The notes: generated by a model from the letters alone, not told the origin. A stretch of 64,000 nt of DNA from a candidate division WOR-3 bacterium (GCA_016934535.1 JAFGSQ010000006.1:2617-66616), one strand, 5' to 3'; shown: positions 24,687-61,302, counted from the first letter of the stretch. Numbers and translations are program-made.

Positions 24687-27600
24687 ATGAAAAACAACAC
24701 GCCATCTTTTATACATGAACGCTTCAAATCCTCTCAGCAATACGGCGTATTTCCTTGTTCCGCAGTGACTATTAATCTTTCCGGTCTTCCCGGAATCATT
24801 GAAAAACTGAAAGATTATAAAAGCGAGGGTTTTACCGAATTCACGGCAAACATTACCAAAATTTACACGCCAATAATCGAGACCATATATCGCCACAGCG
24901 GATTTGTATGTAAATTTTTCAGCGACCAGTTTATAGCCGTTTTCCCACATGAAAATCCGTCCCCTTCAGCAGACAATGCAATTTTTTGCAGTCTCAGTAT
25001 ACTTAAAAAAATGAAAGATCTTGCCAGAATCAAAACTCCATTCGGAGATTACTTTATTTTTTGTAAAATCGGCATCGGAACTGGAAACGCCGATTGGGGA
25101 ATTTTCGGAAAAAAGGAAAAAAATTATTATTTTAAAGGCGACTCGTTCATAAAGTCCTACATGTCGATTTCCGCCGGAGCTCTGAACCGCGTGACACTCG
25201 ACGAATCCACGGTAAAATTGATTACTGACGAAAACATCAAGGCTTCGCTTTTCAGGCAGAAAAATTTCTTTTACGCTGAAAACGTAGATTCAGCTTTGAT
25301 GTCAACGGAATTCACTGATCCAAAATACACGGAAGTAAATGACGAAAGCTTTACTCGAACGGACCTATCAAAACTCCAGGACGGTGATTTCAGCCAGATC
25401 ACATCGCTTCTGACTTCTTTTGACGACAGAGCGTTTGACAACGAAGAAGAATTGATCGATTTTCTTTCATTCGTCTTCGAAAACTCCCGTAAAGACGGTT
25501 TGCTTTTCGGCGGACTTATACATTTCAAACCCAACCCTCACTTGACGTTCTATTTTGAATCAGAAGATGCGCAAAATATTGAAAACGCAGTAAAATCAAT
25601 TTTCCTGGCTGAAAAAGAATTTAAAATTTCAACTCGGACCGTAATGACGAGAGGTATCTCTTACGTTGGCTTCCTCGACACACAATATTATAAAGATTTC
25701 GTTTGTATTAGCCGTTCAATAAACACAGCAGAAATGATTTTGACTCAAACAACTGAAAAAGGAATTTTGATAACAGAAGAGATAAACGAGAAAATTAAAG
25801 ATTCGGTAAATACTCTGCCTCATTCTTCGTTCGTCGAAAAAGGATCCATCAAAGAAACGAGGATTTTCAAGGTTGTCAATAAAAAGACTACCGAACCCGC
25901 AAAAGGGCTTTTTAAAGAGAGGATCGTTTACGGAGAAAAATGTCTAAAGTTCGTAAAACCGTTTCTTGAAAAAAATTTTCCTGGAATAATTTATATTTAC
26001 GGCGACCAGGGCTCCGGAAAAACATTTTTTGCAAACGAGCTTTCAAAAAAATTGAAATCTTCAGTTTTTCTTCTTCACGGAAACCCAATTTTCAACGAAT
26101 CTTTGAAGCCGTTCAAGGATTTTTTCAATGATTTTTTTTTCAAAGAAGAAAGCGCTCAGGACAAGAAAGAAGCGTTCATCCAGAAATACGAAATATTTTT
26201 AAAAAAATGTCAATCATCGACTTCTGAAGGAAATGTTGTTTTAAATGAAGAATTGATAAGAACTCCGACGATTATTGCAGCTTTGACCGGTTTGGAGTGG
26301 GAAAACTCTGTTTACAACAGCGTAGAACAGTGTAATAGGTTTGAAAACTCGGTTTTTGCCATTAAAAATTTTATGCTCTCTGTCGCTTTTATGAATCCTT
26401 TAATTTTAATACTGGATGATTTTCAATACTTTGACCAGGATTCATTGAGCGTCATCCAGGTACTGACGCGCGATATCGCGAACCGTCAACTTCTCATTAT
26501 AGCAACCGCCCGATGTGAAAAAGGTTCTGAAAAACCGAAACTGCTTCTCGACGAAGATGTCCCAAGTCTCGAAATCGAACTTGCAAAAACTTCTATTCAA
26601 GCTCTCGAAGGATTTATAGTATCCTTTCTCGGAGAAGATTCGCCAGACAAATTAATAAACAAAATTACGACTCTTTCTTCCGGAAACCCCTACTTAGCCG
26701 AACAACTGTGTCTTTTGGCAGTGGAAGCACAGGAACAGAAAGAGGAACTGTATTCAAAATTACAAAGCAAAATAAATGAGATTGCAGCCAAAAGAGTTGA
26801 CTTTTGGGAGGAAAAATTACGTGACTCTGTCATTTTCTGTGCGATTTTAGGTAATCATTTCGACAAAAAATCACTCACAGCTTCAAATCCATCGAAAATC
26901 GAAGATTCAAAACTAATCAACTTTTATGACTCTCTCCTGGATGAAGGAGTAAAAAAACAGATTTGGACAATTTCGGCGCCCACCCACATATTTTTTAGAA
27001 ATGAAGAACTCAGAAAATCCATAGTCCAAAACTTGAGCGAAGAAAAAAGAACGACCTTACACCTTGAAGCGGCTAAAGTCCTTGAAACTCTGTTTGGAGA
27101 TGATAAAACACGATTCACTGAAATCGCCTTTCATTTTCAAAGAGGCGGAGACATCGTCAAGGCGGTTAAATACTATATCGATTCCGCCGAATGGTCTTTC
27201 TTTAATTACAGACTTGAAGAATCCGTTGGCCTCTTGAGGACGGCTTATGAGATAGAGAAAGATTTGACAAAAAAATTCGAAATATTATTGAAAATGTTCT
27301 CTGTTCAGAAAGAAATGAAAATTTTTCAGATAGACGAAATACTATACGGACAGGCGGATGAATATTTCCGCTCTGAGAATGACACACCATCTTCCGTAAA
27401 ATTGCTATATTACAGGGCTCATTCTTTTCTCAAGGAAGACGATAAAGACAGAGCTCTCGAGTATATTGAACAGGCGAAAAATCTTGCCGAAGAAAATAAT
27501 CAAACCGAACTTCTGCCTGAAATTTACAAATTTTTTGTTCCTATGCTCATAGAAACACGCAGATTCGAAAAGGCGGAAAAAAGCCTCGATTCTTTCGAAA

Positions 27601-28412
27601 AACTTCCGGAAAAAACCGTCGAACCGCACCTTGGAGACATTATTTCATTCAAAGGGACAATCTTGATGAATAAAGGGAAATTTGACCAGGCACTTGAAGT
27701 GTTCGACAAGGCGGTCACAATTTTTGAAAACAATAAAAATCTGTCCGGTATGGCACCTGTTCTCGACAATGTATCAAAGATATATTTCAAAAAAGGTAAA
27801 GCCGGAAAAGCTTTGGAATACAGTATAAAGTCGCTAAACGTCGGCAAAGAGATAGGTTCATACAAGACCATGGTAATAAATCTGCACAACATAGGCGGAG
27901 TCTTCATGAAGGCGAGAGATTTCAACAAGGCCGTAAAATTTCTCGAACAATCCCAGCGTTTGTCCCGCGAGCTGAAAAACTACAAACTTGAATCTTACGT
28001 CCTCGACAAACTTGGAGACATAGAAAGAGCGAGAGGCTACATGGCAGAGGCTATGTCTTTTTACGAAAGGTCTCTTGAAAACCGTTTAAAACTGGGTGAC
28101 TTGATTGCCGCTGGAAAATCGTTTAAATTCATCGGCGACGTTCTCAGCAGTCAGAACAACTTTGATAAAGCCAAAGAATATTACGTAAAAAGCATGTCGT
28201 ATTTTAAGAAAGCCGATGACAGGAAATCATTGGCCGAATCAATAGAAAGCTTCGGAACAAACGAGTTTAAAAAAGACAAACAAAACAAATTCAAGACTCT
28301 CAAATGCTTGGAACACGCATGGAACATATACGAGAGCCTTAGCGACTACGACAGACTGACCAACCTCGAAAAACTTATAAACCAGGTCACGTGGGAAGGC
28401 ATAGACATCTGA
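24687..28412 (+). CDS. Paralogous multidomain protein: two degenerate cyclase-homology-like domains + P-loop STAND ATPase + TPR repeats
   Basis: Same overall architecture as 9756..13742. Walker A GDQGSGKTFF. The cyclase-like regions lack the FxDxxGFT Asp (VTINLSGLPG) and have degenerate N/R motifs, so they are probably non-catalytic. C-terminal TPR array. Confidence 0.7.
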   Translation: MKNNTPSFIHERFKSSQQYGVFPCSAVTINLSGLPGIIEKLKDYKSEGFTEFTANITKIYTPIIETIYRHSGFVCKFFSDQFIAVFPHENPSPSADNAIFCSLSILKKMKDLARIKTPFGDYFIFCKIGIGTGNADWGIFGKKEKNYYFKGDSFIKSYMSISAGALNRVTLDESTVKLITDENIKASLFRQKNFFYAENVDSALMSTEFTDPKYTEVNDESFTRTDLSKLQDGDFSQITSLLTSFDDRAFDNEEELIDFLSFVFENSRKDGLLFGGLIHFKPNPHLTFYFESEDAQNIENAVKSIFLAEKEFKISTRTVMTRGISYVGFLDTQYYKDFVCISRSINTAEMILTQTTEKGILITEEINEKIKDSVNTLPHSSFVEKGSIKETRIFKVVNKKTTEPAKGLFKERIVYGEKCLKFVKPFLEKNFPGIIYIYGDQGSGKTFFANELSKKLKSSVFLLHGNPIFNESLKPFKDFFNDFFFKEESAQDKKEAFIQKYEIFLKKCQSSTSEGNVVLNEELIRTPTIIAALTGLEWENSVYNSVEQCNRFENSVFAIKNFMLSVAFMNPLILILDDFQYFDQDSLSVIQVLTRDIANRQLLIIATARCEKGSEKPKLLLDEDVPSLEIELAKTSIQALEGFIVSFLGEDSPDKLINKITTLSSGNPYLAEQLCLLAVEAQEQKEELYSKLQSKINEIAAKRVDFWEEKLRDSVIFCAILGNHFDKKSLTASNPSKIEDSKLINFYDSLLDEGVKKQIWTISAPTHIFFRNEELRKSIVQNLSEEKRTTLHLEAAKVLETLFGDDKTRFTEIAFHFQRGGDIVKAVKYYIDSAEWSFFNYRLEESVGLLRTAYEIEKDLTKKFEILLKMFSVQKEMKIFQIDEILYGQADEYFRSENDTPSSVKLLYYRAHSFLKEDDKDRALEYIEQAKNLAEENNQTELLPEIYKFFVPMLIETRRFEKAEKSLDSFEKLPEKTVEPHLGDIISFKGTILMNKGKFDQALEVFDKAVTIFENNKNLSGMAPVLDNVSKIYFKKGKAGKALEYSIKSLNVGKEIGSYKTMVINLHNIGGVFMKARDFNKAVKFLEQSQRLSRELKNYKLESYVLDKLGDIERARGYMAEAMSFYERSLENRLKLGDLIAAGKSFKFIGDVLSSQNNFDKAKEYYVKSMSYFKKADDRKSLAESIESFGTNEFKKDKQNKFKTLKCLEHAWNIYESLSDYDRLTNLEKLINQVTWEGIDI

Positions 28413-47901: not shown

Positions 47902-49296
47902 TCAAATCCATTTTTCAGGCGTCGCGTTTTTCTCGTTGTTTTTCACCGGGAAAAGTATTATTCGGCGTAAATAATCGACTCCCCACCTGTATCGAGTTCC
48001 GCAGGAAGTGCATGTATAACCTGGAGCCGTGTCTTTTCCGCCCGTCTTCTGCACGTGAGAGAATTTTTTACATATAGGGCAGACTGGATCTAGAGCTGTT
48101 TTCGGAGCGAGCATATCCAAATTGGGGTCGAGCATACTTCTCAGTATTTCATCAAATTTCACTCTGATCTCTTTGAGCGGACCCGTGTATGTTCTCGTAA
48201 TCGTTTTTATTTTCTGATGCGTCACTGCATGAGTTCCGACCGTGAGAATCGTCACCGGAATTCCATTGAGTGGTTCGGCGAAGCTGATATACGTTTTTCC
48301 GCCGGCTTCACGCTTCAGATTGACAATGAACTCCGGAGGAATTATGTACAATACGTTTCCGGGGTATGTCCGATTGTGATCCAATAAAAACTCTGCTTTG
48401 TCCGGACCTGTCTGTGCGCCTATGCCCAGAAGAAGTACAATAAAATTCGGCGAGACCGCCATAAATAAATCGCCGTTCAAGGGATTGGTGTCATTCTCCC
48501 TCGGCGCGTATGAAATCTGCTGGAATATCAGTTTAAATTGTGAAAGATTCTCCGCGAAAGGTATAAGCTCCGATTTCAGCTTTAACCTGTCGTAAGACTT
48601 GTCGAATTGATCCAGGCGATACGCTTTTTGTCTCAGTGCCTCTCTTGCTTGTTCTTTGTCCTTTAGCCTGGCTTCCCAGTCGGCTTTATCCCGCGCGTTT
48701 TCAGCCGCTTCAGCTTTCCTTCTTTCTTCTAAATCTATTTTTGTAATCCGGTTTATGTACTCTTCGCATTCAGAAAGCAGTTTTCTGTCAATTTTAATAC
48801 CTTTCGAAAATAGCTTTATCCTCTCTTTCACTGTCTCAAGAAAATAATCGTCTTTATTTCTTCTGCTCCATGTTTTCAAGGCGGCGACTTCTAATTCGGA
48901 GTTTTTTGAACCGGTTAAAACCGCACTCAGAAAAAAGTCTACGGCTTTGACAATTTTCTTTTTGTGCAAATTTATCAAAACTACATTGAATAAAAAAGAA
49001 AGCATTCCGCTCAAGACCGTCATGATTAAAAATATAAGTATCTTTAAAAAAAAGTTGGGATTGAATCCAGTTCGGGGAAAAATAAAAAAGACGCTCAATG
49101 CGGAAAGGAATACAAGAAAAAAAGCCAACACTTTGGATAAAACGTGGCTTTCGGCGCCTTTTATAAATTCAAAATTCAGGCCGTTCCTTTCTGTAGAAAA
49201 ATCTTTCATTTTTTCGTAACGGTCAAAATATTTGATTTTTAGCTTTTCTATGTCGGGAAAACCGTTTTGTAACTCTTCCTTTTTTTCTTCCTGCAT
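47902..49296 (-). CDS. Hypothetical membrane protein: 2 TM helices + long coiled coil + globular domain + C-terminal zinc ribbon
   Basis: Hydrophobic helices at ~aa 55-105. A coiled-coil region EERRKAEAAENARDKADWEARLKDKEQAREALRQ. C-terminal CPIC...CTSCG. No family recognised. Confidence 0.45.
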   Translation of the reverse strand: MQEEKKEELQNGFPDIEKLKIKYFDRYEKMKDFSTERNGLNFEFIKGAESHVLSKVLAFFLVFLSALSVFFIFPRTGFNPNFFLKILIFLIMTVLSGMLSFLFNVVLINLHKKKIVKAVDFFLSAVLTGSKNSELEVAALKTWSRRNKDDYFLETVKERIKLFSKGIKIDRKLLSECEEYINRITKIDLEERRKAEAAENARDKADWEARLKDKEQAREALRQKAYRLDQFDKSYDRLKLKSELIPFAENLSQFKLIFQQISYAPRENDTNPLNGDLFMAVSPNFIVLLLGIGAQTGPDKAEFLLDHNRTYPGNVLYIIPPEFIVNLKREAGGKTYISFAEPLNGIPVTILTVGTHAVTHQKIKTITRTYTGPLKEIRVKFDEILRSMLDPNLDMLAPKTALDPVCPICKKFSHVQKTGGKDTAPGYTCTSCGTRYRWGVDYLRRIILFPVKNNEKNATPEKWI

Positions 49297-49372: not shown

Positions 49373-49750
49373 TCATTTAAAGTCAATTTCGCTGGAATTA
49401 ATAAAACCGTCGGAATTCTCGTTAATGTATTCCTCGAGAGCACTTTCTTCTATCAATATTGTCTGTTCGCCGGTTTTCGTGAATTCATTTCTTGCTGGTT
49501 TTTCTGTTAATTTAATAAAAAAATCGAATCCTTCAAATTCTGAAATGTCACTAATTCTCATTGTCACGACATCGTATGTCTGCACATAATCTTCTCCGTC
49601 TTCACCCGTATAAAATATTTTGATTTCTTCTCTCTTGTAATCAGAAAAAGTCGCCACCATTTCAATTTTTCCGGACCATGCAGATGCTGTGCCGCTGCAG
49701 GTTAGAACCACAAATGACAGATATGAAAAGAAGGCTCTTGCTAAATACAT
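49373..49750 (-). CDS. Hypothetical small secreted protein (signal peptide)
   Basis: N-terminal MYLARAFFSYLSFVVLTCSGTASA, then an acidic domain. It lies directly upstream of 47902..49296 on the same strand. Confidence 0.4.
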   Translation of the reverse strand: MYLARAFFSYLSFVVLTCSGTASAWSGKIEMVATFSDYKREEIKIFYTGEDGEDYVQTYDVVTMRISDISEFEGFDFFIKLTEKPARNEFTKTGEQTILIEESALEEYINENSDGFINSSEIDFK

Positions 49751-50087: not shown

Positions 50088-50852
50088 ATGAGTGCCTTGA
50101 ATTGTTTTGCTCTTATTTTTGTTTCTTTGTCAGCCTGTTCCAACCTTCAAAAAGCAAATCTTGACAGCAATTACTGTCAAAATAAAGTAGACGAATTTAA
50201 TCAACTTATTAAGCCGTATTTTTGTTACGAGGAAACTGATCCGGACAAACGATTTGACGTTACAAATTTCTTACTAGTCCTCGACCTCCTTTCCATGGAC
50301 AGCGGCTATCGCCTGGATTTCCTTTACATGCCTGTCGCCGGAGGCGGGCAACCTGTTCTGGTTTCGATACCTGTATCACAGTCCATCGATGAATTCGCTG
50401 ATAAATTCAGAGATATATTTACAGAGGAAGAATGGCAAAATAACGCGGCTTACGATAAATTCTTTGAACACATTCGAACCGACGGTTCACCGGAAGCCTT
50501 TTTCCAGCTAGCCATTCTCGGAATTATGGGCAATCATTTCTGCCTTTTCTGGCATTCCCTGGAGTTAGACGATGTCATCATCTGCAGCCAAAGTGGTCTC
50601 GATGAACTTATCAACACCCTTTTGTCCGAAGGATTCCAGATTCCGCCGGACGCACTTAAAACAGCGCGCGAGACCGACCTTACTCCTTCAATTATAATGA
50701 CTGAAAATTCAGTTGAAATATCAGTTATAGCCTTTACTAAATACGGAGGATTTGAGAAACACACGCTTGTTTTTAATTCTGAATTTCCTCACATTCTGCT
50801 TTCAAGAAACATTGAAACTGTCGCTTGGTGCTTTATAGGAGGAATTCACTAA
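50088..50852 (+). CDS. Hypothetical lipoprotein
   Basis: Signal peptide with a lipobox-like LSAC. 254 aa, no recognisable family. Confidence 0.4.
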   Translation: MSALNCFALIFVSLSACSNLQKANLDSNYCQNKVDEFNQLIKPYFCYEETDPDKRFDVTNFLLVLDLLSMDSGYRLDFLYMPVAGGGQPVLVSIPVSQSIDEFADKFRDIFTEEEWQNNAAYDKFFEHIRTDGSPEAFFQLAILGIMGNHFCLFWHSLELDDVIICSQSGLDELINTLLSEGFQIPPDALKTARETDLTPSIIMTENSVEISVIAFTKYGGFEKHTLVFNSEFPHILLSRNIETVAWCFIGGIH

Positions 50853-50961: not shown

Positions 50962-51549
50962 CTATATGTCTTTTCGGGGATATACTTTTAAATACGGTGA
51001 TTCACCGGAGCAATTTTTGCATTTGTCTCCGTGTTTGACGGGATATGCTTCTTTACAAACCGGGCAAATTCCTGAGGGACCGCCTCTTTCTCTTGTCAAT
51101 TTTTTCGAATCGACAAGCACATTTTGCCGGCTTAGAATATTTTGGCCGGCTTCTTTGATCTGAAACAGCAAAAGATCTTTGTCTTGATCTTTTTTTGGTT
51201 TAAGCTTAAAAAACCAACTGTTGATTTCAGGCCAATTTATCAATTTTTCCGCATCAAGATAAACTCTCACGCCGTTGCCGGATTTTTTTTCATATAATGT
51301 AACGGCAAATTTTCCAAAATCAAAAACTTTCAGCCATCCGTTGCCTATTGTACAAGGAGTGAGTATCTGAACGGCGTCGGGAAGACATGACTGAGTTTCG
51401 CAAATGGCGTCAAAAAAATCTCCTTCGGGAAGATTTTTCATGGCTAAATCAATAATAAAGCCGCCTATCAGCAAACCGGGAGCCAGACTGCCGTGAAAAG
51501 ATTCGACCAGTCTGATATATTCTTCGTATGAGTATTTCCCTATGTTCAC
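50962..51549 (-). CDS. FmdE-family protein with C-terminal zinc ribbon, a frequent partner of tungstate/molybdate uptake genes
   Basis: 195 aa. N-terminal FmdE-like domain with conserved Cys (CETQSCLPDA). C-terminal CPVCKEAYPVKHGDKCKNCSG. Confidence 0.65.
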   Translation of the reverse strand: MNIGKYSYEEYIRLVESFHGSLAPGLLIGGFIIDLAMKNLPEGDFFDAICETQSCLPDAVQILTPCTIGNGWLKVFDFGKFAVTLYEKKSGNGVRVYLDAEKLINWPEINSWFFKLKPKKDQDKDLLLFQIKEAGQNILSRQNVLVDSKKLTRERGGPSGICPVCKEAYPVKHGDKCKNCSGESPYLKVYPRKDI

Positions 51550-51568
51550 TTGCCTGAAATCTCCATTT

Positions 51569-52282
51569 TCAGTATGCCAATGCCAGTTTCGGCTCCCTCG
51601 CCGCTTTGTTTACTTTTCCCTCGTCTGCTTCTGTATTTAATAATTGCTGATCCCATTCCTTGTCAATTTTCCCGTCAACAATCGGCAACATCTCATCCGC
51701 GAGGAACAATGCTTCGTTAATGTCGTGAGTGACATAAACTATCGGAACAGAAAGACTTTGCTTTAATTTTTTCAATTCCTCTCTGAGACTGCGGCGCGTG
51801 ACAAAATCCAGGGCAGAGAACGGCTCGTCCAGAAGAAGAATCTTCGGTTTTCTCGCGAGCGCCTGACAGAAGGCGCATCTCTGTCTTTCGCCGCCAGACA
51901 CCTGATAAGGTTTTCTGTCTGAAATATGGCTTATTTTAAACGCATCAAAAAGGTCGTAAACCTCTTTTTTATCGACGGCGGCAAACGCAGCATTATCAAA
52001 TAAACTGAGGTGCGGGAAAAGTGTGTAATCCTGGAACACATATCCGGTTCTTCTTTTCTGCGGAGATAAAAACCGCTTGGCGGAAGAATCGAACCATACA
52101 TCATCGCTTACGGATATTTTTCCCGTGTCCGGTTTTTCGAGTCCTGCGAGCATTCGAACGACAGTTGTCTTGCCGCTGCCGGAAGGTCCAATCAACACTG
52201 CTATCTTGCCTTCTTCGCAGGAAAAAGATAAGTCAATTACATAATGGTAAAGTTTCTTCTTTAAAGATACGCTTAATGACAT
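51569..52282 (-). CDS. Tungstate/molybdate ABC transporter ATP-binding protein (TupC/ModC-like, no Mop domain)
   Basis: Walker A GPSGSGKTT, signature VSGGERQR, Walker B LLLDEPFSALD. 237 aa with no C-terminal Mop domain. Confidence 0.8.
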   Translation of the reverse strand: MSLSVSLKKKLYHYVIDLSFSCEEGKIAVLIGPSGSGKTTVVRMLAGLEKPDTGKISVSDDVWFDSSAKRFLSPQKRRTGYVFQDYTLFPHLSLFDNAAFAAVDKKEVYDLFDAFKISHISDRKPYQVSGGERQRCAFCQALARKPKILLLDEPFSALDFVTRRSLREELKKLKQSLSVPIVYVTHDINEALFLADEMLPIVDGKIDKEWDQQLLNTEADEGKVNKAAREPKLALAY

Positions 52283-52935
52283 ATTCTTTTTTCAGTAAGT
52301 TTATTGACAACCAGTAAAAACACAAAACTTATCGGGATCATGCTCAAAGACAAAATTCCCGCGGTCGAGTAATCCATCTTTTCAACCGCTTCGTAAATAG
52401 CTATAGATGCAACCTTCGTGACGCCTCTTATGCTTCCTCCGACCATGACTATTACCCCGAAAGCTCCCATTGTGTGAATGAAAACAAGGACTGCTGCAGC
52501 GACGATTCCGCTGATGCTGTTCGGCAGGACAACTTTGAAAAAAACTTTCGGTTCCGACAAACCGAGCACTTTTGCGCTTTCAATGAGCCTCGTGTCGATT
52601 TTTTGAAACGCAGCTTTCATCGGCTGAACCGCGAAAGGCAAGCTGTATATCACAGTGGCTATTGTAATTGCAATAAAAGTAAAAAGAAGAGTACTTCCCG
52701 TCGCTTTTTCCCAGATACGGCCTATAAAACCTTTCGGCCCCATTGCCATTATCAGATAAAATCCTATCACTGTCGGGGGCAAAGCGGTCGGAAGATAAAG
52801 AAACGATTCAATGAACGGTTTTCCTTTGAATCTGTTGAAAGCCAAAAAATAAGCGAGAGGAGCTCCTAAGACCATCAAAACGGCAGTTGTTGTAAACGCA
52901 AGCTTCAGTGTGACGTATAGAGGCAGTAGATCCAT
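52273..52935 (-). CDS. Tungstate/molybdate ABC transporter permease (TupB/ModB-like)
   Basis: 220 aa with 5-6 TM helices and an EAA-like loop (ESAKVLGLSEPKVFFKVVLP). Confidence 0.8.
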   Translation of the reverse strand: MDLLPLYVTLKLAFTTTAVLMVLGAPLAYFLAFNRFKGKPFIESFLYLPTALPPTVIGFYLIMAMGPKGFIGRIWEKATGSTLLFTFIAITIATVIYSLPFAVQPMKAAFQKIDTRLIESAKVLGLSEPKVFFKVVLPNSISGIVAAAVLVFIHTMGAFGVIVMVGGSIRGVTKVASIAIYEAVEKMDYSTAGILSLSMIPISFVFLLVVNKLTEKRICH

Positions 52936-53724
52936 CTATTCGTAACCGTATCTGACATTTATTTGATTTACTTCATTCGACGACAAAAATTTAATAAACT
53001 CTTCGACCGCTCTTCTGTTTTCAGTTCTGACAAGCAAACAGGCGGATTGTATGACGGGAGGAGCTTCTTCAACGAAGAAATAACTTCCCTTCTCTCCTTC
53101 GGAGGAAAAAACAGAAGAGTAAGCGCAGAAACCGGCGTCCACTGCTTCAGTGGATGCGTACTGAAAGGCCTGGGCGATCGTCTGGGCAGTTACAATTCTA
53201 TCTGACACAGTTTCGGCTAATCCTGCAGATTCCAAAGCTATCAAAGCAGAAGTCCCGTATGGAGCAGTTTCAGGATTGGCCAAAGCAATTTTTGATATAT
53301 TTTCCCTTGCCATGGCTGATTTCCAGTCTCCGGAATCCGCGAAATTCGCGTCAGCCGACCAGAGCACTACTTTGCCGCGGGCATATATAAAAGGTTTTTC
53401 CGAAAGCCCTGCGCTGAAAAGAGATTCCGGTCTTTCTTCGTCGGCAGAGAAAAAAATGTCGTAAGGAGCACCGTTGATTATCTGATTATAAAGGTTTCCT
53501 GAGGATGTGAACGTCGCCTCTATTTCTATACCGGTCTCTTTCTCAAAAGCGGCTTCAATCTCACCGAAGGGCTGAGTGTAGTTTGCCGCGACCGCGACCT
53601 GAATACTTTCAGTTTTTTTTTCACAACCGGTAAATGATAGAACAGAAATACTGACAATTGAAAATACAAAAAATAACGATTTTAATTTCATTTTATAGCG
53701 TCTCCGATATTTGTCACATAACAT
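52936..53724 (-). CDS. Periplasmic oxyanion-binding protein (TupA/ModA/WtpA-like)
   Basis: Signal peptide with lipobox (LSFTGC). A 262-aa type-II substrate-binding protein fold. First gene of the ABC cassette. Confidence 0.75.
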   Translation of the reverse strand: MLCDKYRRRYKMKLKSLFFVFSIVSISVLSFTGCEKKTESIQVAVAANYTQPFGEIEAAFEKETGIEIEATFTSSGNLYNQIINGAPYDIFFSADEERPESLFSAGLSEKPFIYARGKVVLWSADANFADSGDWKSAMARENISKIALANPETAPYGTSALIALESAGLAETVSDRIVTAQTIAQAFQYASTEAVDAGFCAYSSVFSSEGEKGSYFFVEEAPPVIQSACLLVRTENRRAVEEFIKFLSSNEVNQINVRYGYE

Positions 53725-53758
53725 TTAAGGCATAAAAAAACTCACAAACCAATATAAT

Positions 53759-53782
53759 ATCCGGGCATTTTTGAGCCCGGAT
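53759..53782 (-). terminator. Inverted repeat ATCCGGGC-atttttga-GCCCGGAT 19 nt downstream of fdhA; a weak terminator candidate or regulatory hairpin
   Basis: Perfect 8-bp stem. The T-run on the minus strand is not immediately adjacent, so intrinsic-terminator strength is uncertain. Confidence 0.3.
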
Positions 53783-53800
53783 ATCATATCTCTTAAAAGC

Positions 53801-56488
53801 TCAGATTTTTTCTATTTTTACCGCGCAAGCTTTGTATTCGGCGGTTTTCGTGTCAGGATCAAACACGTTGTTTGTCAGCCAGTTCGCATTTCCTTCCCTG
53901 AAATGAAAAGCCATCCAGACCAGACCGGGTGGAATTTTTTCCGTCACTTTCGCCCTGACTTTCACCGATCCACGGCGGGAGCTTACTTTTATGTACTCAC
54001 CGTCTTTGATTTTCATTTTTTTTGCGTCTTCAAGTGAAATGTCGGCTGTTTCTTCAGGCAGGATCTTGTCCAGCCCCACTCTTTTGGTCTGTGTTCTCGT
54101 GTGATAGTGGAACAGTCGGCGCCCAGTGCTGAGAACGAAGGGATATTCAGCATCTTCGACCTCCGCAGGCGGCGTCCATTCGACACCTTTGAACAGTCCT
54201 TTACCCCGGGAAAATTTTCCTTCTTTATGGAGAAACTTCGTTCCGGGATGTTCCACTGTCGGGCATGGCCACTGAAGTCCGTCTTTTTCTATTCGGTTAT
54301 ATTTTATCCCGCCGTAAGCAGGGGCGCACACCGAGATTTCGTTGTCCCAGATTTCCTGCGCGCTGTTGGACTGCCAGTCATGCCCCATGCGTTTTGCAAT
54401 CTCCTTGAAAATCCACCAGTTCGGTTTTGATTTTCCGGGAGCTTCCTTGATTTTGCGCACGCGGTTGACACGTCTTTCGCTATTTGTGAATGTTCCTTCG
54501 TCTTCACACCAGGCCGCCGCTGGAAGTATGACGTGGGCAAACCGTGTGGTCTCAGTCGGGAATATGTCGTTGCATACAATAAACTCTGCGGAAGAGAGTT
54601 CATGCTCGACATGTGTGATGTTAGGTTCAGAATTTGCGAGATTCTCGCCGAATATATAGAAAGCCCTGACTTTATTTGTCGGAAGTCCGGCCATCATATC
54701 GGGAAGCATCAGTCCCACTTTGTCAGAAAGATTTGAAACGTTCCAGAACTTTTCGAACTTTTCTTTATTTTTCGGATCGGTAACCGCCTGGTATCCAGGA
54801 TAAACATTCGGTAGAGCCGCCATGTCGCAGGCGCCCTGGACATTGTTCTGACCGCGAAGCGGGTTCACTCCGCCGCTTTCTTTGCCCATGTTTCCTAAAA
54901 GCATCTGGAGGTTGGCGGTAGACATGACGTTGTTTTTTCCGCATGTGTGTTCTGTTATGCCGAGCGTGTAACAGAGCATGGCGGGTTTGACAGACGCCAT
55001 CGTTTTGGCTATTTCTATGATTTTCTCGGTGGGAACACCGGATATAATTGAGGCTTTTTCGGGCGGATAGTTCATGACCGTTTTTTTAAGTTCCTCAAAA
55101 TTCTCGCAGTTTTCCTCGACAAACTTCTTGTCGTAGAGATTCTCGGTTATCAGAACATTCATGATGCCATTGAGAAAAGCAATGTCCGAACCCACCTTTA
55201 TCTGTGCAAAAATGTCCGCCTTCTTAGCCAGATCGTGTTTTCTGGGATCGGCTACGATAAGCTTTGCGCCTTTTTTCTTTGCGCGTTTGACGAAATACGA
55301 AGCCACGGGATGCGCTTCCGTCATGTTTGTGCCGATCAGGAAAAACATCTTGGCGTTTTCAAATTCACCGAAAGAATTTGTCATCGCACCGGAACCGAAG
55401 GTAGTTGCCAGACCGGCAACTGTCGGAGCGTGTCAAGTTCGTGCGCAATGGTCAATGTTGTTTGTGCCTACGACGCTCCTGAAAAGCTTCTGCATGTTGT
55501 AGGAGTCTTCGTTTATGCTCCTCGCACAGCTGACAGCAGCGAGAGCATCGGGACCGGATTCTTTCAAAATCTGCTTGAATTTGTCAGCGACCAGACAAAG
55601 AGCTTCGTCCCAGTCTGCTTCCCTGAACTTGCCGTCTTTTTCCCTTATCAGAGGAGTCGTAAGTCTGTCTTTATCATAAATGAAGTCGTAACCGTAGCGC
55701 CCTTTGACACAAAGATGCCCTTGATTCGGTTTCGCTTCATCAACTCCTTTGACTCTTACAATCTGATCCCCTTTAACCCACAACTCAAGCTGACAGCCCA
55801 CACCGCAGTATGGACATGTAGTTCGTACTTTTTCTATCTCCCAGGCCCGCGCTTTTCCCATGCCTTTTTTGTCCACCAGGGCTCCTACAGGGCATAACTG
55901 AACGCATTCCCCGCACTGAACGCACGTTGAATCTCCCATCGGACTGTCCTCATCGCAAACTACTTTTGTGTGTCCGCCCCTGTATCCAAAATCAAGAACT
56001 TCATTGACCACAAGATTGTTACATCCCTCTATACAGCGTCCGCACTGAATACACTTGCCGAAATCTCTCATTATGAACGCGGCGCTTTCGTCCTTCTCCT
56101 CTTTCTGTTCGACCAAAAAAGCAGGTACTTCAATTCCAAGATGATAAGCGGCGTCCTGAAGTTCGCAGTCTCCGTTGCGCTCGCACGACAGACAGTTGTG
56201 ATTCCCGTTGGCTAAAAGCAGGTTGACTATCATCTTGCGAGATTCAATAATTGTTTCAGTATTCGTCCTGATTTTCATCTGGTCTGCCGCCGCCAGCGAA
56301 CATGAGGTCTGCAGTCCTCTCATGCCCTCTACCTCTACAACGCATATTCTGCACATGCTCGCAGGACCGATTTTGGTATGATAACAGAGCGATGGAATGT
56401 AAATATCATTCTCCCTCGCAACCTGAAGTATTGTTTTATCACCTTCAAAGGTTATCTCTCTTCCGTCGATAATCATTTTTTTGCTCAT
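53801..56488 (-). CDS. fdhA: Formate dehydrogenase catalytic (alpha) subunit, NAD-linked FdhA/FdsA type, selenocysteine-containing (in-frame TGA at 55433-55435)
   Basis: The ORF track splits it into 55433..56488 and 53801..55384. Reading through the TGA in frame gives ...[53 protein letters not shown]..., which matches the FdhF Sec motif CARVUHGPSVAGL. The N-terminus has NuoG-like 2Fe-2S/4Fe-4S Cys clusters. The C-terminus has the molybdopterin-dinucleotide-binding domain. Confidence 0.85.
55395..55432 (-). promoter_or_regulatory. Bacterial SECIS element (selenocysteine insertion hairpin) immediately 3' of the UGA
   Basis: mRNA: UGA CAC GCU CCG ACA GUUGCC-GGUCU-GGCAAC UACC. E. coli fdhF: UGA CAC GGC CCA UCG GUUGCA-GGUCU-GCACC. 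Shared features are the same spacing from the UGA, a 6-bp stem and the GGUCU apical loop. Confidence 0.7.
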
Positions 56489-56504
56489 CAGAGATTCTCC
56501 TTTT

Positions 56505-58223
56505 TCAATTATTCACCAGAGCCTCAAACTCTGACCTGAATTTTTCTACCATGGCTTTTATGGGTAAGGAAAACGCTTCACCGGTTGGGCAAAGAGTCAG
56601 CCCTTTTATGTTCGAACAAAGATTAACAATAAGGTCTATGTCTGATTTTGACCCTCTGCCTTCGACTATGTCGCGCAGTTTGTTGACAATTACGAGAGAA
56701 CCTTCTCTGCAGGGCGTACACTGTCCGCAGGATTCGTGGTGATAAAACTCCATGGTTCTCAGGGCTAAAGCAGGTATAGACACAGTGTCGTTAATCACTA
56801 TTATTCCGCCCGAACCCAAAGCAGTCCCGGCTTTAGCGCATGAATCGTAATCGAGCAAAAGGTTCTTTGCCTCTTTGGCTGTGAGAACAGGCACAGAAAG
56901 TCCTCCGACGATTATCGCTTTCATTTTCCCTTTCACTCCTCCCGCCGCCTTGAGAATAACGCTGAGTTTTGTGCCAAGAGGATATTCGAACACGCCGGGA
57001 TTGCTGACGTGTCCGGAAACTCCGAATATTTTGGGTCCGTAGTTGTCTTTTGTTCCGATTTTTTTAAATTCGGCCGCTCCTTTTCCGACAATGTATGGAA
57101 CACAAGATAAAGTTTCGACATTGTTGACAACTGTCGGGCATCCGTAGAGACCGAAGTTCGCAGGGAAAGGCGGCTTGGATCTCGGATTTCCTCTTTTCCC
57201 CTCCAATGATTCAATCTGTGCGGTTTCGTCTCCGCACACGTATGAACCTGCGCCTCTGTGAACCACTATGTCTATGTGTTTTATCTGACCGTCATTTTTG
57301 GCTTCTTCAATTGCCGTTTCGAGGATATCGGCTATCCAGGAAAATTCCCCTCTTATGTAGACAAATGCTTTGGCCGCTTTAATCGCGTGAACGCAGATGG
57401 CTATACCCTCAATAAGCAAATGGGGATTAAATTCCATGATCTGCCTGTCTTTGAAGGTTCCGGGTTCCCCTTCGTCGGCATTGCAAATAAGGTAAACAGG
57501 GCGCGGATCATTTTTTGGAAGAAATGACCACTTGGTTCCTGCAGGAAAACCGGCTCCTCCTCTTCCGCGGATTTGAGCCTCTTTAACTTCATTTACAACT
57601 TCTTCGGGCCTCATATTCAGGGCTTTTGTCAGCGCTTCGTACCCGCCGTTGGACTTATAATATGATAAAGTGCGGCAATCCTTTTTGGAACGATCGTTCA
57701 AAAGTATATTGCACTCCGAAACGACTCTCATCTTTGAGCTTTTTTCCGGTATTTTGCCTTTTTTCAGAGATTCAATAAGCTTTTCAGTTTTACTTACTGT
57801 CATATTTTCGAAATACCTGTCGTTGACCTGTATCACCGGACCCGTTGCGCATGAAGCCAGGTCCTGAACCGTGGACAATGTGAACATTCCGTTTTTTGTG
57901 GTTTCACCGACATTTATTCCGAGTTTTGAACTGAGATATTTTACTATTTTATCTGCACCGTGAAGATAGCCGGGAACACAAGTATCAACCTGAAGGTGAT
58001 ATTTCCCCACCGGAACCGTATTGAACATCGAATAATATGTGGCGATGCTGAAAACACGGCTTTTGCTCACTCCGGTAATACGTGATATTTTTTCAATCAA
58101 CGCCGGACTCATGTAATTGCCGTTTTTTTTCTGTAAATGCTGCATAACCGGCAACAAAGCCGATTCCGGCTTCGGATATTTGCCGGTTATTTTCTCAAAA
58201 TTCTCTTTCGTCTCTGTTTTCAT
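56505..58223 (-). CDS. fdhB: Formate dehydrogenase NAD(P)-binding subunit: fused NuoE-like + NuoF-like (FMN, NADH, 4Fe-4S) domains
   Basis: NuoF motifs GRGGAGFPAGTKW (FMN), ICNADEGEPGTFKDR (NADH) and ESCGQCTPCREG (4Fe-4S). The N-terminal ~160 aa are a NuoE-like thioredoxin-fold domain in which only 2 of the usual 4 cluster Cys are evident. Confidence 0.85.
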   Translation of the reverse strand: MKTETKENFEKITGKYPKPESALLPVMQHLQKKNGNYMSPALIEKISRITGVSKSRVFSIATYYSMFNTVPVGKYHLQVDTCVPGYLHGADKIVKYLSSKLGINVGETTKNGMFTLSTVQDLASCATGPVIQVNDRYFENMTVSKTEKLIESLKKGKIPEKSSKMRVVSECNILLNDRSKKDCRTLSYYKSNGGYEALTKALNMRPEEVVNEVKEAQIRGRGGAGFPAGTKWSFLPKNDPRPVYLICNADEGEPGTFKDRQIMEFNPHLLIEGIAICVHAIKAAKAFVYIRGEFSWIADILETAIEEAKNDGQIKHIDIVVHRGAGSYVCGDETAQIESLEGKRGNPRSKPPFPANFGLYGCPTVVNNVETLSCVPYIVGKGAAEFKKIGTKDNYGPKIFGVSGHVSNPGVFEYPLGTKLSVILKAAGGVKGKMKAIIVGGLSVPVLTAKEAKNLLLDYDSCAKAGTALGSGGIIVINDTVSIPALALRTMEFYHHESCGQCTPCREGSLVIVNKLRDIVEGRGSKSDIDLIVNLCSNIKGLTLCPTGEAFSLPIKAMVEKFRSEFEALVNN

Positions 58224-58428
58224 GCCTTTTCCTTTACTGTTTGCTTTCCACCAAGTTCAGCGTACGTAAATAAAAATTTATTTTGAAAAAAGACGGCATA
58301 TTATACAAGAATACTTTTATTATGAGAATTAAAAAAATAATTTTTTTTACAGAATAAATGATTCGAAAATGTTGTCTTTATTTGGGGTACTTGTTTAAAT
58401 GTTCACATTGATCCTGCATACGTAGAAA

Positions 58429-59187
58429 TCAATCGCTTGTCGGGAATATTTTTGTTTGACACCTTACAAGATTAACAAGCTTTATACCTCCGCATTTTTT
58501 CATCGCACTGAAGCTCATACCTTTTTTTATATTTTCAAGAACGAGATCAGTATCAGTGACATACGAACCGGAAATAACGTCTATACCATAATCGAAAAGA
58601 ATTTTCGTCAATGGAGTGGTCGGCCCTAATAAAATTTTAACGCTTTCATCCGGGCAAAGCTTTAGAAGATTCGATAAAGTGTGATTTATAAAAGTTGTGC
58701 TCGTTATGGCAATGATGTCCGACTCGGGTAAATATGTCTTGCTGTCGCCTTCCTGAAAGTCTCCCGGCTTAGGCTTTTTTTCAATAACCCACAGATTTTT
58801 AGTGACATTCCTGAGTTCATCGACAAAAGGAAAATGACCTACGACAGACACGTTTTTCCCTTTTCCTGATTTTATAATGAAATCCTTGGAATTAAATTCC
58901 TCACAAGATTCAATATCAATGTCAATGACAGAATTTATCGCGGCCATACCGAGTGATGCTTCGGCAATATCGTCCGAAAGAGATAATGAAGCGAGTTTAT
59001 CGGCGGACATGTCCGAATATTTATCGGCAAAGTTTTCATGTCCGTATTTCCCGCAATTTCTTCCGTTTAAAGCAGAAGATAATCCGCATCGCCTGCTGAC
59101 AACGCCCGTCCAAAGAGAGCCTTTTCTTATTGCGCTTACTTTCACTCCCTTTTCAAGGTCGGATATTATTTCTTTGAGAATTTTCAT
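58429..59187 (-). CDS. DUF364/DUF4213-like Rossmann-fold protein (putative heavy-metal chelation domain)
   Basis: Start set at the internal ATG (MKILKEIISD) that overlaps the upstream stop as ATGA. ~250 aa, paralogous to the adjacent gene. The family assignment is from memory of PF04016/PF13938 and needs checking. Confidence 0.45.
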   Translation of the reverse strand: MKILKEIISDLEKGVKVSAIRKGSLWTGVVSRRCGLSSALNGRNCGKYGHENFADKYSDMSADKLASLSLSDDIAEASLGMAAINSVIDIDIESCEEFNSKDFIIKSGKGKNVSVVGHFPFVDELRNVTKNLWVIEKKPKPGDFQEGDSKTYLPESDIIAITSTTFINHTLSNLLKLCPDESVKILLGPTTPLTKILFDYGIDVISGSYVTDTDLVLENIKKGMSFSAMKKCGGIKLVNLVRCQTKIFPTSD

Positions 59188-59954
59188 GTTGACGCCTTTT
59201 CTCTGCTCCGCGGGCATATTCTGTTCAATCCCAACAATTCGCATATTCCTGCGCATGTGACACCGAAAATTATATACTTTTTATTGTGTCGGCATATTTT
59301 TTCCCAGATACCGTCAAACGAGTCATTTACAAAAGTTGTACCTGTGAGAAGAACAACGTCAGATTCCCTGATGAGTCTTTCAGTTTCGGTTTCGCCGTCC
59401 CAAATTATTGTTCCATACTTTTCCACTCCTATATTCGCAGGATTTAGATCGGTTGCTCTTATGTTCCCGGTTCCGAAATTTCTGCGGAGGGAATCCAGTA
59501 TGGCGGGATTCAATCCTATGAGGCCAACGACGGAAGAAGAAAACTCATTATTAATGAATGAAGATATTTCCTGAGCACATTCTTCCGGATCCTCGTCTTT
59601 GCAGTGGATGGTGTTTTTCACAATTGAAAGATGTTTCAAAACAGAGTTCATTGCGGCGATAAACAAAGCACGTCTGCTGTTGTCAGAAAGCGACATTTCT
59701 AACACATCTTTCAACTTTCCTGTAAATTCCCTTGGCGTGTCAGTAAATACGTGCGCTTTTGACCCGACAAAATCAGCCTCAATTACTCTTTCTTTACCGA
59801 TCAGGATAGGGAAATCCCTCCTTCCCGGCGAACCTATGGCTTCTTCCGGTGACAGGGTTTTAACAAGTATCGAGATATTACAATCCATAAGATTCTTTTC
59901 TATTACTATTTTTCTGAATATTTCTTTTGCAGTTATCAGTGCTTTAGTTATCAT
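59184..59954 (-). CDS. DUF364/DUF4213-like Rossmann-fold protein (paralog)
   Basis: 256 aa with similar length and pattern (VVLLTGTTFVND...IIFGVTCAG) to the downstream paralog (ILLGPTTPL...VISGSYVTD). Confidence 0.45.
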   Translation of the reverse strand: MITKALITAKEIFRKIVIEKNLMDCNISILVKTLSPEEAIGSPGRRDFPILIGKERVIEADFVGSKAHVFTDTPREFTGKLKDVLEMSLSDNSRRALFIAAMNSVLKHLSIVKNTIHCKDEDPEECAQEISSFINNEFSSSVVGLIGLNPAILDSLRRNFGTGNIRATDLNPANIGVEKYGTIIWDGETETERLIRESDVVLLTGTTFVNDSFDGIWEKICRHNKKYIIFGVTCAGICELLGLNRICPRSREKAST

Positions 59955-60810: not shown

Positions 60811-61302
60811 TTAATATCTTCGAGGGATTTTTTCTCCGCACGAACGGCATGCCTCATCATACCAGCCCATCCTCTTTCCGCATTTTCTGCACTTCCAGTA
60901 TTCATTTTGAGACTTCAACCATTCGTCCTTGCCTAGTCTTTTTATATCCATCATATTGTTTATTATGAATCTTACATGAGGCAGTGAGACTTTTAACGAA
61001 TCAACAGCCACCTTCATCTCTTTTAAGAGAGTACAGGGAAAATCCGGGCATTCAAAACAGAATTGAACCTGTTTGTTTTTAGCGCATTCCCGCATTTTAC
61101 ATTTTTTACAGCCCTCAAAAACCAGATCAGACTTACAACCCCTGCACTCAATCCTGGCTGGACTTATGTGGTTTTTAATCGGTTCGGGAAAATCAGCCCA
61201 CTCAAAACACCGGCCTTCTTCCGAAGTTCTTTTGTAAGCGAGTAAAATTTCACAAGCTCCGCAGAAAAGACCGCAATATGAATCTTCGTAGAAAACAGAC
61301 AT
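60811..61302 (-). CDS. Cys-rich protein, DUF3795-like (16 Cys in 163 aa)
   Basis: Multiple CxxC/CxxxC pairs (CGLFCGAC, CRGC, CKKCKMREC, CFECPDFPC, CRKCGKRMGWYDEACRSC). The family name is recalled, not verified. Confidence 0.45.
   Translation of the reverse strand: MSVFYEDSYCGLFCGACEILLAYKRTSEEGRCFEWADFPEPIKNHISPARIECRGCKSDLVFEGCKKCKMRECAKNKQVQFCFECPDFPCTLLKEMKVAVDSLKVSLPHVRFIINNMMDIKRLGKDEWLKSQNEYWKCRKCGKRMGWYDEACRSCGEKIPRRY

Follow-up and report, generated by a model that had tools for sequence, protein, structure and literature searches.

The window analysed here is the whole of a 64,000-nt stretch of DNA from a candidate division WOR-3 bacterium. It exhibits an island of genes, all on the minus strand, in which a formate dehydrogenase (FDH) and a ModABC-type anion importer are preceded by two proteins of the DUF364 fold, here designated D1 and D2. 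This pair, and its possible part in the handling of molybdenum (Mo) and tungsten (W), is the subject of the present analysis. The order of transcription is DUF3795, a class I S-adenosylmethionine (SAM)-dependent methyltransferase (MTase), D1, D2, a gap of 205 bp, fdhB, fdhA, modA, modB, modC and fmdE (Table 1). A preliminary description of this DNA counted nine same-strand genes from D1 to fmdE. The common strand was correct, whereas the nine open reading frames (ORFs) correspond to eight genes, because a selenocysteine (Sec) codon splits fdhA into two. The pair was also described as lying immediately upstream of fdhB; the order is right, but the gap, with a promoter-like site, separates them. 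The complete gene order was found again only in contigs carrying a 94%-identical D1 (L004-L006; L-numbers denote compared loci from other genomes and metagenomes).

Table 1. Genes and other features of the island, in order of transcription.
Feature	Position	Strand	Model or score
DUF3795 Cys-rich protein, 163 aa; possible first gene of the upstream unit	60811..61302	-	Pfam PF12675, 56.2 bits
Class I SAM-dependent methyltransferase (MTase), 258 aa	60016..60792	-	Pfam Methyltransf_25/31/11
D1, divergent DUF364-fold protein, 256 aa	59184..59954	-	Pfam DUF364, 36.6 bits
D2, canonical DUF4213+DUF364 protein, 252 aa	58429..59187	-	Pfam, 44.5 + 126.6 bits
Promoter-like site TTCTCA-17-TATAAT in the D2-fdhB gap	58300..58328	-	consensus scan, 10/12 matches
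fdhB, fusion of NuoE-like [2Fe-2S] and NuoF-like FMN/NAD(H)/[4Fe-4S] parts, 572 aa, diaphorase subunit	56505..58223	-	Pfam, NCBIfam
fdhA, selenocysteine FDH alpha subunit, 895 aa including U, NuoG-like N-terminal Fe-S module	53801..56488	-	
Selenocysteine insertion sequence (SECIS) element, starting at the UGA codon	55380..55438	-	Rfam RF01989 SECIS_3, 43.1 bits
Hairpin with 10-bp stem after the fdhA stop; possible terminator or attenuator between fdhA and modA	53757..53784	-	
modA, molybdate/tungstate-binding lipoprotein, probable start 53691	52936..53724	-	TIGR01256, Pfam SBP_bac_11
modB, permease	52273..52935	-	TIGR02141
modC, ATPase, 237 aa, short form without TOBE/Mop	51569..52282	-	ABC_tran, TIGR02142
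fmdE, FmdE core domain and treble-clef zinc finger, 195 aa	50962..51549	-	PF02663, PF23475

D2 matches both PF13938 (DUF4213, 44.5 bits) and PF04016 (DUF364, 126.6 bits), hits the structure 3L5O in the PDB (E-value 1e-18), and yields an AlphaFold2 model with a pLDDT of 89.6. D1 matches PF04016 (36.6 bits, gathering score 23) through its C-terminal half only and exhibits no PF13938 match in the Pfam search. The preliminary description had named both models as a check on the pair; in the Pfam search, PF04016 matched both proteins and PF13938 matched D2. A PDB sequence search with a D1 profile returned no DUF364 match, and fold comparison alone revealed the relationship. D1 and D2 share 29% identity over 150 residues, and a profile comparison aligns just 45 columns around the motif that follows β4. 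We assign D1 and D2 as anciently diverged, distant DUF364-fold paralogues; the family given for them earlier is right, and their paralogy is distant only. The ATGA stop/start overlap proposed to couple the two genes (59187..59184) is real, the D2 start being backed by the consensus N-terminus of its homologues (MxILxxII).

Both proteins retain the cleft residues of 3L5O (Dhaf4260 of Desulfitobacterium hafniense), whose authors considered the site suited to a long pterin- or flavin-like ligand. In D2 these are G117-H118 after β1, E136 at the end of β2 and T164/T165/N168 after β4; their counterparts in D1 are G147-L148, D169 and T204-G-T-T-x-x-N210, respectively. The invariant residues of D2 are C34, G117-H118-F-P, E136 and T164-T165-x-x-N168-H169. 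Those of D1 comprise a GLNPA loop, Asp169, TGTTxxN, an Arg/Lys-rich loop (EEAIGxPGRRDFPIxxGKER) that is modelled as disordered, and His117-Cys118, Cys126 and Cys247. D1 is just 11-15% identical to 3L5O and to 3NPG (PH1506 of Pyrococcus horikoshii), and differs from both by its own invariant His-Cys...Cys...Cys, its Arg/Lys-rich loop and the lack of a DUF4213 match. Each of the two proteins is predicted to combine an enolase-N-like domain with a Rossmann domain that retains the signature features of an adenosyl-ligand site, and to have in addition a conserved, mobile loop and conserved cysteines. The analysis divides DUF364 into the canonical form, represented by D2, and a large divergent subfamily, represented by D1. 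The latter comprises 925 clusters at 90% identity and 732 representatives at 50% identity, and is found at 255 loci in species-representative genomes from many anaerobic phyla.

Fusions were sought among the D1 representatives. ModC is joined to D1 in a protein of 623 aa on at least 22 contigs, where its gene comes third in an operon, after modA and modB; the ModA of this operon scores above the TIGR01256 cutoff. FmdE is joined to D1 in a protein of 433 aa (24 contigs; Peptococcaceae metagenome-assembled genome, MAG), beside a TrmO-like gene and an NMT1-type ATP-binding cassette (ABC) importer. NifU_N+D1 fusions form two separate clusters. The His-Cys...Cys...Cys residues are kept in the ModC, FmdE and NifU_N fusions alike. 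Fusions of D1 to Aminotran_4, GNAT, Barstar and PfkB have a single representative each and may stem from faulty gene calls. A D1-D2 fusion, which would have pointed to a heterodimer, was sought and not found among the 150 best representatives. The C-terminal attachment of D1 to the ATPase recalls the TOBE/Mop domain of full-length ModC, a cytoplasmic module that mediates trans-inhibition by cytoplasmic molybdate; D1 is, however, a two-domain protein of 250 residues and not a small β-barrel. The ModC+D1 fusion appears to keep a TOBE-like stretch between the ATPase and D1, whereas the ModC of the window has neither.

Unfused D1 genes also lie within mod operons or next to them. The cultured Syntrophorhabdus aromaticivorans UI exhibits the order modA-D1-modB-modC (L019), with a second cluster of metallo-β-lactamase (MBL)-fold, D1, D2 and NifU genes 5 kb away, and the order modA-D1 occurs in a Dehalococcoidales MAG and in L089 (loci L080 and L089). 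At three other loci (L040, 12125-15046; L063, 10744-13710; L064, 3903-6772), D1 precedes a NitT/TauT-type ABC system. The binding protein of this system is SsuA/NMT1-like, its permease TauC/SaoP-like, and its ATPase carries a TOBE-like tail (best match WtpC, below its cutoff). This importer may be an unrecognised oxyanion transporter. The FmdE+D1 gene of L093 (4586-7104) stands beside an importer of the same kind. A TrmO_N (UPF0066) gene lies directly upstream of FmdE+D1 (L093, 7196-7996; L094, 6247-7047) and also near a large D1/D2 cluster (L001, 4112-4675); the TrmO_N family may take part in the same functional network.

The neighbourhoods of D1 and D2 were surveyed with hidden Markov models (HMMs) built from the window and from annotated relatives, which were run over all six-frame ORFs of 80 independent species-level D1 loci from genomes and 80 D2 loci from metagenomes. 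The counts rest on home-made HMMs and raw ORFs, and the background expectations are rough estimates. An earlier clustering, based on greedily chosen longest ORFs and connected components of BLAST matches, was rejected: it lost overlapping genes, including D1, and split divergent families.

The commonest partner of D1 is a TauE/TSUP permease, encoded directly upstream on the same strand at 31 of the 80 loci, with overlapping ORFs at 21. At such loci (for instance L022, L035, L041, L047, L054, L060, L076 and L087) often nothing else recognisable is nearby. Other genes near D1 encode MinD-type ATPases with ferredoxin inserts (27 loci), MBL-fold proteins (24), NifX-like proteins (22), DUF134+NifX-domain proteins (21) and NifU_N (20). 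Factors of cofactor maturation are represented by XdhC (10), YqeB (6, of which 5 directly downstream of D1; TIGR03309, 316-354 bits), MOSC (4) and MoeA (4). ModB is found within 10 kb at 6 loci, for a rough expectation below one, ModA at 4 and FmdE at 1. XdhC and YqeB resemble D1 and D2 in their Rossmann-type domains and in being accessory rather than catalytic, and are frequent direct neighbours of D1. They differ in belonging to other families, in being absent from the window, and in their clients, which are molybdenum hydroxylases and not bis-pyranopterin guanine dinucleotide (bis-PGD) enzymes such as FDH.

For D2, the gene directly upstream encodes a DUF134+NifX-domain protein at 23 of the 80 loci, and the gene directly downstream NifU_N at 16. 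MBL-fold proteins (26), MinD-ferredoxin ATPases (21), radical-SAM proteins (17, of which 16 within 2 kb) and ModA (6) are also found near D2, and TauE at no locus. D2 is present near D1 at 15 of the D1 loci, directly downstream at 4, and D1 adjoins D2 at 9 of the D2 loci. D1 and D2 are thus recurrent, not obligate partners: just about 10% of the loci of either have the other next to it. The nearest homologues of D2 can also be solitary, in surroundings of unrelated genes (L088, L090). An MTase of the window type overlaps the D2 start at five metagenome loci and lies within 5 kb at 10 of the 80, in the order MTase-D2-D1 in L129/L130; an MTase is also found directly upstream of D2 in L001, L026 and L029. 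The MTase belongs to the DUF364 module. No NCBIfam model scores it above cutoff, and a specific identity was rejected. DUF3795 keeps its place ahead of MTase-D1-D2 in L004-L006 and was not found in the other D1 and D2 neighbourhoods examined (80 of each), which leaves its tie to the module uncertain.

A formate dehydrogenase is a rare neighbour of either protein. At a single locus, D1 has an FdhA-like gene less than 5 kb away, on the opposite strand, and FdhB-like genes occur at three loci, all more than 5 kb off. Near D2, a true FdhA or a fragment is found within 6 kb at about 5 of the 80 loci, which look like one lineage: true FdhA (TIGR01591, 758-762 bits) is encoded 2-6 kb upstream of D2 clusters in L132 and L148, and fragments are seen in L141, L146 and L158. 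The synteny of DUF364 with FDH, expected beforehand to be conserved, is weak and lineage-restricted.

A long conserved cluster with both D1 and D2 is present twice in the Syntrophorhabdaceae chromosome OY762209.1 (L001, 4920-17007; L003, 6397-14877) and also at L012-L014, L019 and L053. Its order is a DUF134+NifX-domain regulator, two or three MinD/CbiA ATPases with ferredoxin inserts, a NifX-like protein, an MBL-fold protein, D1, YqeB, XdhC, a methyltransferase, D2, NifU_N, a gamma-carbonic-anhydrase-like LbH protein, a rhodanese and a radical-SAM protein. The cluster looks like a cofactor-assembly pathway in non-diazotrophs; in a literature search, no paper was found that explains clusters of NifX-domain and MinD-ferredoxin genes. 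A Se_S_carrier gene and Sulf_transp genes lie near D1/D2 clusters that contain rhodanese, MOSC, XdhC and YqeB.

The FDH, ModABC and FmdE of the island are ordinary members of their families. The fdhB product exhibits the Pfam domains 2Fe-2S_thioredx, Complex1_51K, SLBB and NADH_4Fe-4S and matches the NuoF and NuoE models of NCBIfam. The fdhA product exhibits Fer2_4, NADH-G_4Fe-4S_3, Fer4, Molybdop_Fe4S4, Molybdopterin and Molydop_binding, and matches the NuoG model. Against TIGR01591, the equivalog model of the FDH alpha subunit, its N and C parts score 176 and 634 bits. The in-frame TGA (55435..55433) stands in the context NIDHCART-U-HAPTVAGL, where the next residue is His. At this codon the full-length SECIS_3 model matches with 43.1 bits (E-value 4e-7 for 16 kb and 5e-9 for 201 nt), a score under the gathering score of 63. 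The equivalog match, the UGA-His pair and the SECIS element together identify fdhA as a selenocysteine FDH alpha subunit, in agreement with the preliminary description. The split fdhA is also present in the 94%-identical relatives.

On account of the NuoG-like alpha module and the fused NuoE/NuoF partner, the FDH is attributed to the soluble NAD(H)-linked FdsGBA type. It is predicted to be an NAD(H)-linked, selenocysteine, Mo/W-bis-pterin enzyme, whose metal, W or Mo, is not readable from the sequence; we know of no sequence signature that distinguishes W from Mo in the FDH family. The enzyme requires Sec plus a sulfido ligand, as established for the FdhF/FdhD system. The enzyme resembles the FdsGBA FDHs of Rhodobacter capsulatus and Cupriavidus necator in the NuoG-like Fe-S module and bis-PGD domain of its alpha subunit and in its NuoE/NuoF-like partners, and Escherichia coli FdhF in the His that follows the catalytic residue. 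In contrast to FdsGBA, it has NuoE and NuoF fused in one protein and a catalytic selenocysteine, and its operon contains no gene recognisable as FdsC/FdhD-like or FdsD-like.

Both ModA (TIGR01256, 177.4 bits against a cutoff of 62.5) and ModB (TIGR02141, 211.7 bits against 182.6) exceed the thresholds of their equivalog models. The 15 related structures retrieved from the PDB for the binding protein are without exception ModA, with no TupA or WtpA among them. ModC covers positions 1-213 of the 353-position TIGR02142 (192 bits, cutoff 285) and was correctly described before as lacking a Mop domain. The importer is assigned by these matches to the ModABC type, with a short form of ModC. A Tup or Wtp identity was rejected, the scores being 50.6 bits for TupB (cutoff 320), 28 for WtpA (243-355), 99 for WtpB (340) and 172 for WtpC (440), with no TupA-type match to the equivalog models. 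Because ModA and ModB pass the Mod cutoffs while Tup and Wtp scores lie far below theirs, the preference for tungstate proposed earlier for a Tup/Mod importer is unsupported. ModA proteins commonly bind both molybdate and tungstate. The longest modA ORF opens at 53724 (MLCDKYRRRYK...); the start at 53691 is backed by the gene call in L004 and by a signal peptide with lipobox (MKLKSLFF...FTGC).

FmdE matches PF02663 (131.4 bits), PF23475 (a treble-clef zinc finger, 48.5 bits) and the PDB entry 3D00 from Syntrophus (E-value 4e-71). The metal site of the FmdE N-domain is characterised by the motif FHGHxC, with three ligands (PMC2954224). Residues 17-22 of the window protein are FHGSLA and those of 3D00 FHGYPA, both without two of the three ligands; the subgroup they form probably binds metal at the zinc finger only. 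The FmdE core is known to be fused to the molybdopterin-binding MoCF_biosynth domain and to TrmO_N/UPF0066, and most fmdE genes adjoin genes of metal-ion transporters (PMC2954224).

The D2-fdhB gap is AT-rich and contains the promoter-like TTCTCA-17-TATAAT at 58328..58300. In L004 the ~115 nt running from this site up to the start codon of fdhB are conserved without change (100% identity), and substitutions and indels are confined to the D2-proximal part of the gap. This pattern is no more than suggestive of a conserved promoter-like element before fdhB. The hairpin between the fdhA stop and modA is a perfect 10-bp inverted repeat, ATATCCGGGC...GCCCGGATAT, with a T-rich tail; its stem is the same in L004 and its loop variable. 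It could serve as a terminator, an attenuator or a protein-binding palindrome. A molybdenum-cofactor (Moco) or other riboswitch in either gap was ruled out, the SECIS being the sole Rfam match in 48-64 kb; a scan of the whole 64-kb window gave no Rfam family at gathering score. The island probably comprises three co-directional units rather than one operon: DUF3795-MTase-D1-D2, fdhB-fdhA and modA-modB-modC-fmdE.

The flanks of the island are unrelated to it. cysS and an amine oxidase gene lie upstream, and a plus-strand gene of no recognised function followed by an Na+/H+ exchanger-EIIA gene lies downstream. A Pfam search at E≤1e-5 gave nothing for three ORFs that border the island (47902-49296, 49373-49750 and 50088-50852; 464, 125 and 254 aa). 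Elsewhere in the window are two very large AAA_16 ATPase and TPR signalling proteins unrelated to the present finding, one of 1328 aa on the minus strand (9756-13742), which also has adenylate/guanylate cyclase domains, and one of 1241 aa on the plus strand (24687-28412). No tRNA gene was found in the window. The cysS product is 100% identical to a protein from a MAG that NCBI labels as candidate division WOR-3. This label may be imprecise, because the nearest CysS relatives beyond that MAG belong to Chitinivibrionales/Chitinispirillia (Fibrobacterota; 62-65% identity).

Methanogens are already known to encode Mod, DUF364, FmdE and a Mo/W enzyme side by side. In Methanococcus maripaludis S2 the genes modC, DUF364, modB, modA, fmdE and fmd are contiguous (MMP_RS02670 to MMP_RS02710), and in Methanothermobacter mod genes lie beside fmdECB. 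The M. maripaludis cluster shares with the island ModABC, a DUF364 protein (at the family level), FmdE and a Mo/W enzyme of the formate/formyl-methanofuran dehydrogenase superfamily, and the DUF364 protein is without an assigned role there too. It differs in its client, which is Fmd and not a bacterial NAD-linked Sec-FDH, whereas the window has two DUF364 genes of different subfamilies and an MTase, outside the mod operon. The mod/DUF364 operon of M. maripaludis is cofit with nifH, with polarity not excluded. Miller et al. gave tungstate, molybdate, vanadium and iron transporters as partners of DUF364, an association that dates from 2010. As this association and the methanogen gene set were already known, the idea put forward in the preliminary description restates a published hypothesis; what it adds on FDH and on tungstate is unsupported.

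The best reading of these data would be that the DUF364 module serves Mo/W enzymes in anaerobes generally, not FDH in particular. We consider that there is about an even chance that D1/D2 and FmdE act in the cytoplasm between Mo/W import and cofactor insertion, with the adjacent FDH as their client in this lineage. They would receive Mo or W from the anion importer as an oxyanion, a thio-oxyanion, or a pterin-bound or adenylylated intermediate, and D1/D2 would hand it on to the assembly and insertion machinery (MoeA, MogA or XdhC-type factors). This role is suggested because D1 is fused to both ModC and FmdE and is present inside or beside mod operons; because the maturation genes YqeB, XdhC, MOSC and MoeA are among its neighbours; because M. 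maripaludis has contiguous mod, DUF364, fmdE and fmd genes; and because both proteins retain a 3L5O-type site, with the invariant Arg/Lys loop and His-Cys...Cys...Cys in D1. The same fusions, operons and maturation-gene neighbours sustain the link of DUF364 to Mo/W handling and oxyanion transporters made in the preliminary description. Gene content, fold, family membership, fusions and neighbourhoods are established; what the proteins bind, which way they pass it on and whether they catalyse a reaction is inferred.

Several points weigh against such a role. No biochemical datum ties any DUF364 protein to Mo/W, and the sole characterised member, Orf5, cyclises 4''-methyl-SAM in a Streptomyces pathway (PMC12930334). 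The phenotype seen in M. maripaludis may reflect polarity. D1 is most often accompanied by a TauE/TSUP permease, a transporter to which a sulfur anion is usually ascribed as substrate. The usual company of D2 is NifU_N, NifX-domain, MinD-ferredoxin, MBL and radical-SAM genes and not Mod, and adjacency of D1 and D2 is the exception at the loci of each. In the window itself the pair is probably transcribed apart from fdh. The supporting counts come from the home-made HMMs and raw ORFs described above, and the metagenome loci are partly redundant. Transport of molybdate by TauE, which would follow if the oxyanion permease PerO of R. capsulatus were a TSUP/TauE protein, is not claimed here, because PerO is cited as a member of the DASS family.

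The main alternative, rather unlikely, is the trafficking of sulfur, selenium or Fe-S units, in which the D1/D2 cysteines, together with a NifU-type scaffold, a rhodanese and anion permeases, would deliver not the metal but a sulfido or selenido ligand or an Fe-S unit to Mo/W centres or apo-enzymes. The two separate NifU_N+D1 fusion clusters agree with this, as do the NifU_N genes near D1 and directly downstream of D2, the rhodanese, MOSC, XdhC and YqeB ('selenium-dependent molybdenum cofactor biosynthesis') of the same clusters with Se_S_carrier and Sulf_transp nearby, the translational coupling of D1 in many lineages to TauE, nominally a sulfite exporter, and the invariant His-Cys...Cys...Cys of D1. 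The local FDH, moreover, requires both Sec and a sulfido ligand. However, the ModC+D1 and FmdE+D1 fusions and the D1 genes inside modABC operons point to a metal oxyanion, and no cysteine desulfurase or SelD gene was seen beside D1/D2 in the loci inspected. The two explanations merge if the substrate is thiomolybdate or thiotungstate. Mo is largely present as thiomolybdate in sulfidic media, and M. maripaludis can use it (PMC11484787, PMC10390477).

It is decidedly unlikely that D1 and D2 are a pair of SAM-consuming small-molecule enzymes, of which one or both would attack the aminocarboxypropyl part of SAM by cyclisation or transfer, like Orf5, and would produce with the MTase a metabolite, possibly a chelator, unrelated to cofactor insertion. 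Orf5, a DUF364 4-methylazetidinecarboxylate (MeAZE) synthase of the bonnevillamide cluster with the catalytic residues Tyr61 and Glu204, converts 4''-methyl-SAM to MeAZE and methylthioadenosine (PMC12930334), and this is the only biochemistry of the family. D1 and D2 belong to the same Pfam family and conserve the adenosyl-site hallmarks; a class I SAM MTase lies directly upstream of D2 in unrelated contigs, and radical-SAM genes recur within 2 kb of D2. An adenosyl ligand, SAM, is plausible for D1 and D2. In contrast, Orf5 sits in an actinomycete secondary-metabolite cluster, and D1/D2 among anion importers, Fe-S proteins and Mo/W cofactor genes of anaerobes.

A coincidental adjacency, in which the DUF3795-MTase-D1-D2 unit would have no functional relation to Mo/W or FDH, is very unlikely. 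The probable separate promoter, the solitary closest homologues of D2 and the many D1 loci with nothing recognisable except TauE are compatible with it. However, D1 is fused independently to ModC and FmdE, two other families of the island, which makes chance placing beside modC and fmdE unlikely, and the same gene set recurs in methanogens. Lastly, the role proposed in the preliminary description, a dedicated W/Mo (or Se) insertion chaperone for the adjacent FDH, is highly improbable: D1/D2 adjoin fdhBA on the same strand, no fdhD-like gene is apparent in the operon, the arrangement is retained in the 94%-identical relatives, and a few metagenome loci have a true FdhA upstream of D2 clusters, but most D1 and D2 genes have no FDH nearby, FdhB-like genes never lie within 5 kb of D1, and fdhB is preceded, in the gap, by a conserved promoter-like element of its own.

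With respect to the known systems, the new elements are the recognition of D1 as a separate, widespread subfamily, its fusions with ModC, FmdE and NifU, its coupling to TauE, and the MTase-D1-D2 module as part of a larger cluster of NifX-domain, MinD-ferredoxin, NifU, MBL and radical-SAM genes. A broader scheme, quite unlikely as a whole, would assign to D1-type DUF364 proteins and FmdE the cytoplasmic step that is missing from the acquisition of Mo/W by anaerobes. These proteins would dock on ModBC, on NitT/TauT-type ABC importers, or on TauE/TSUP permeases, which would then be unrecognised carriers of Mo/W or thio-oxyanions. Molybdate, tungstate or their thio-forms would be captured by the Arg/Lys loop and a putative Cys3His site, and a Mo/W-S species would then be passed, with the help of a NifU-type scaffold and an adenosyl cofactor, to molybdopterin insertion or to the NifX-domain/MinD-ferredoxin/radical-SAM clusters of non-diazotrophs.

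The route of molybdate and tungstate from the importer to molybdopterin is poorly understood, above all in sulfidic anoxic habitats, where thiomolybdate and thiotungstate species predominate. DUF364 and FmdE are both widespread, and structures have been solved for both families; neither has an assigned role, and their association with metal transporters has been noted repeatedly. M. maripaludis and S. aromaticivorans are tractable organisms in which the role of D1 and DUF364 may be studied. If the proposed role of D1/D2 and FmdE is not true, the island is an ordinary FDH-Mod operon beside an uncharacterised module. If it is true, D1, D2 and FmdE would be worth including when W/Mo FDHs are expressed for CO2 reduction.

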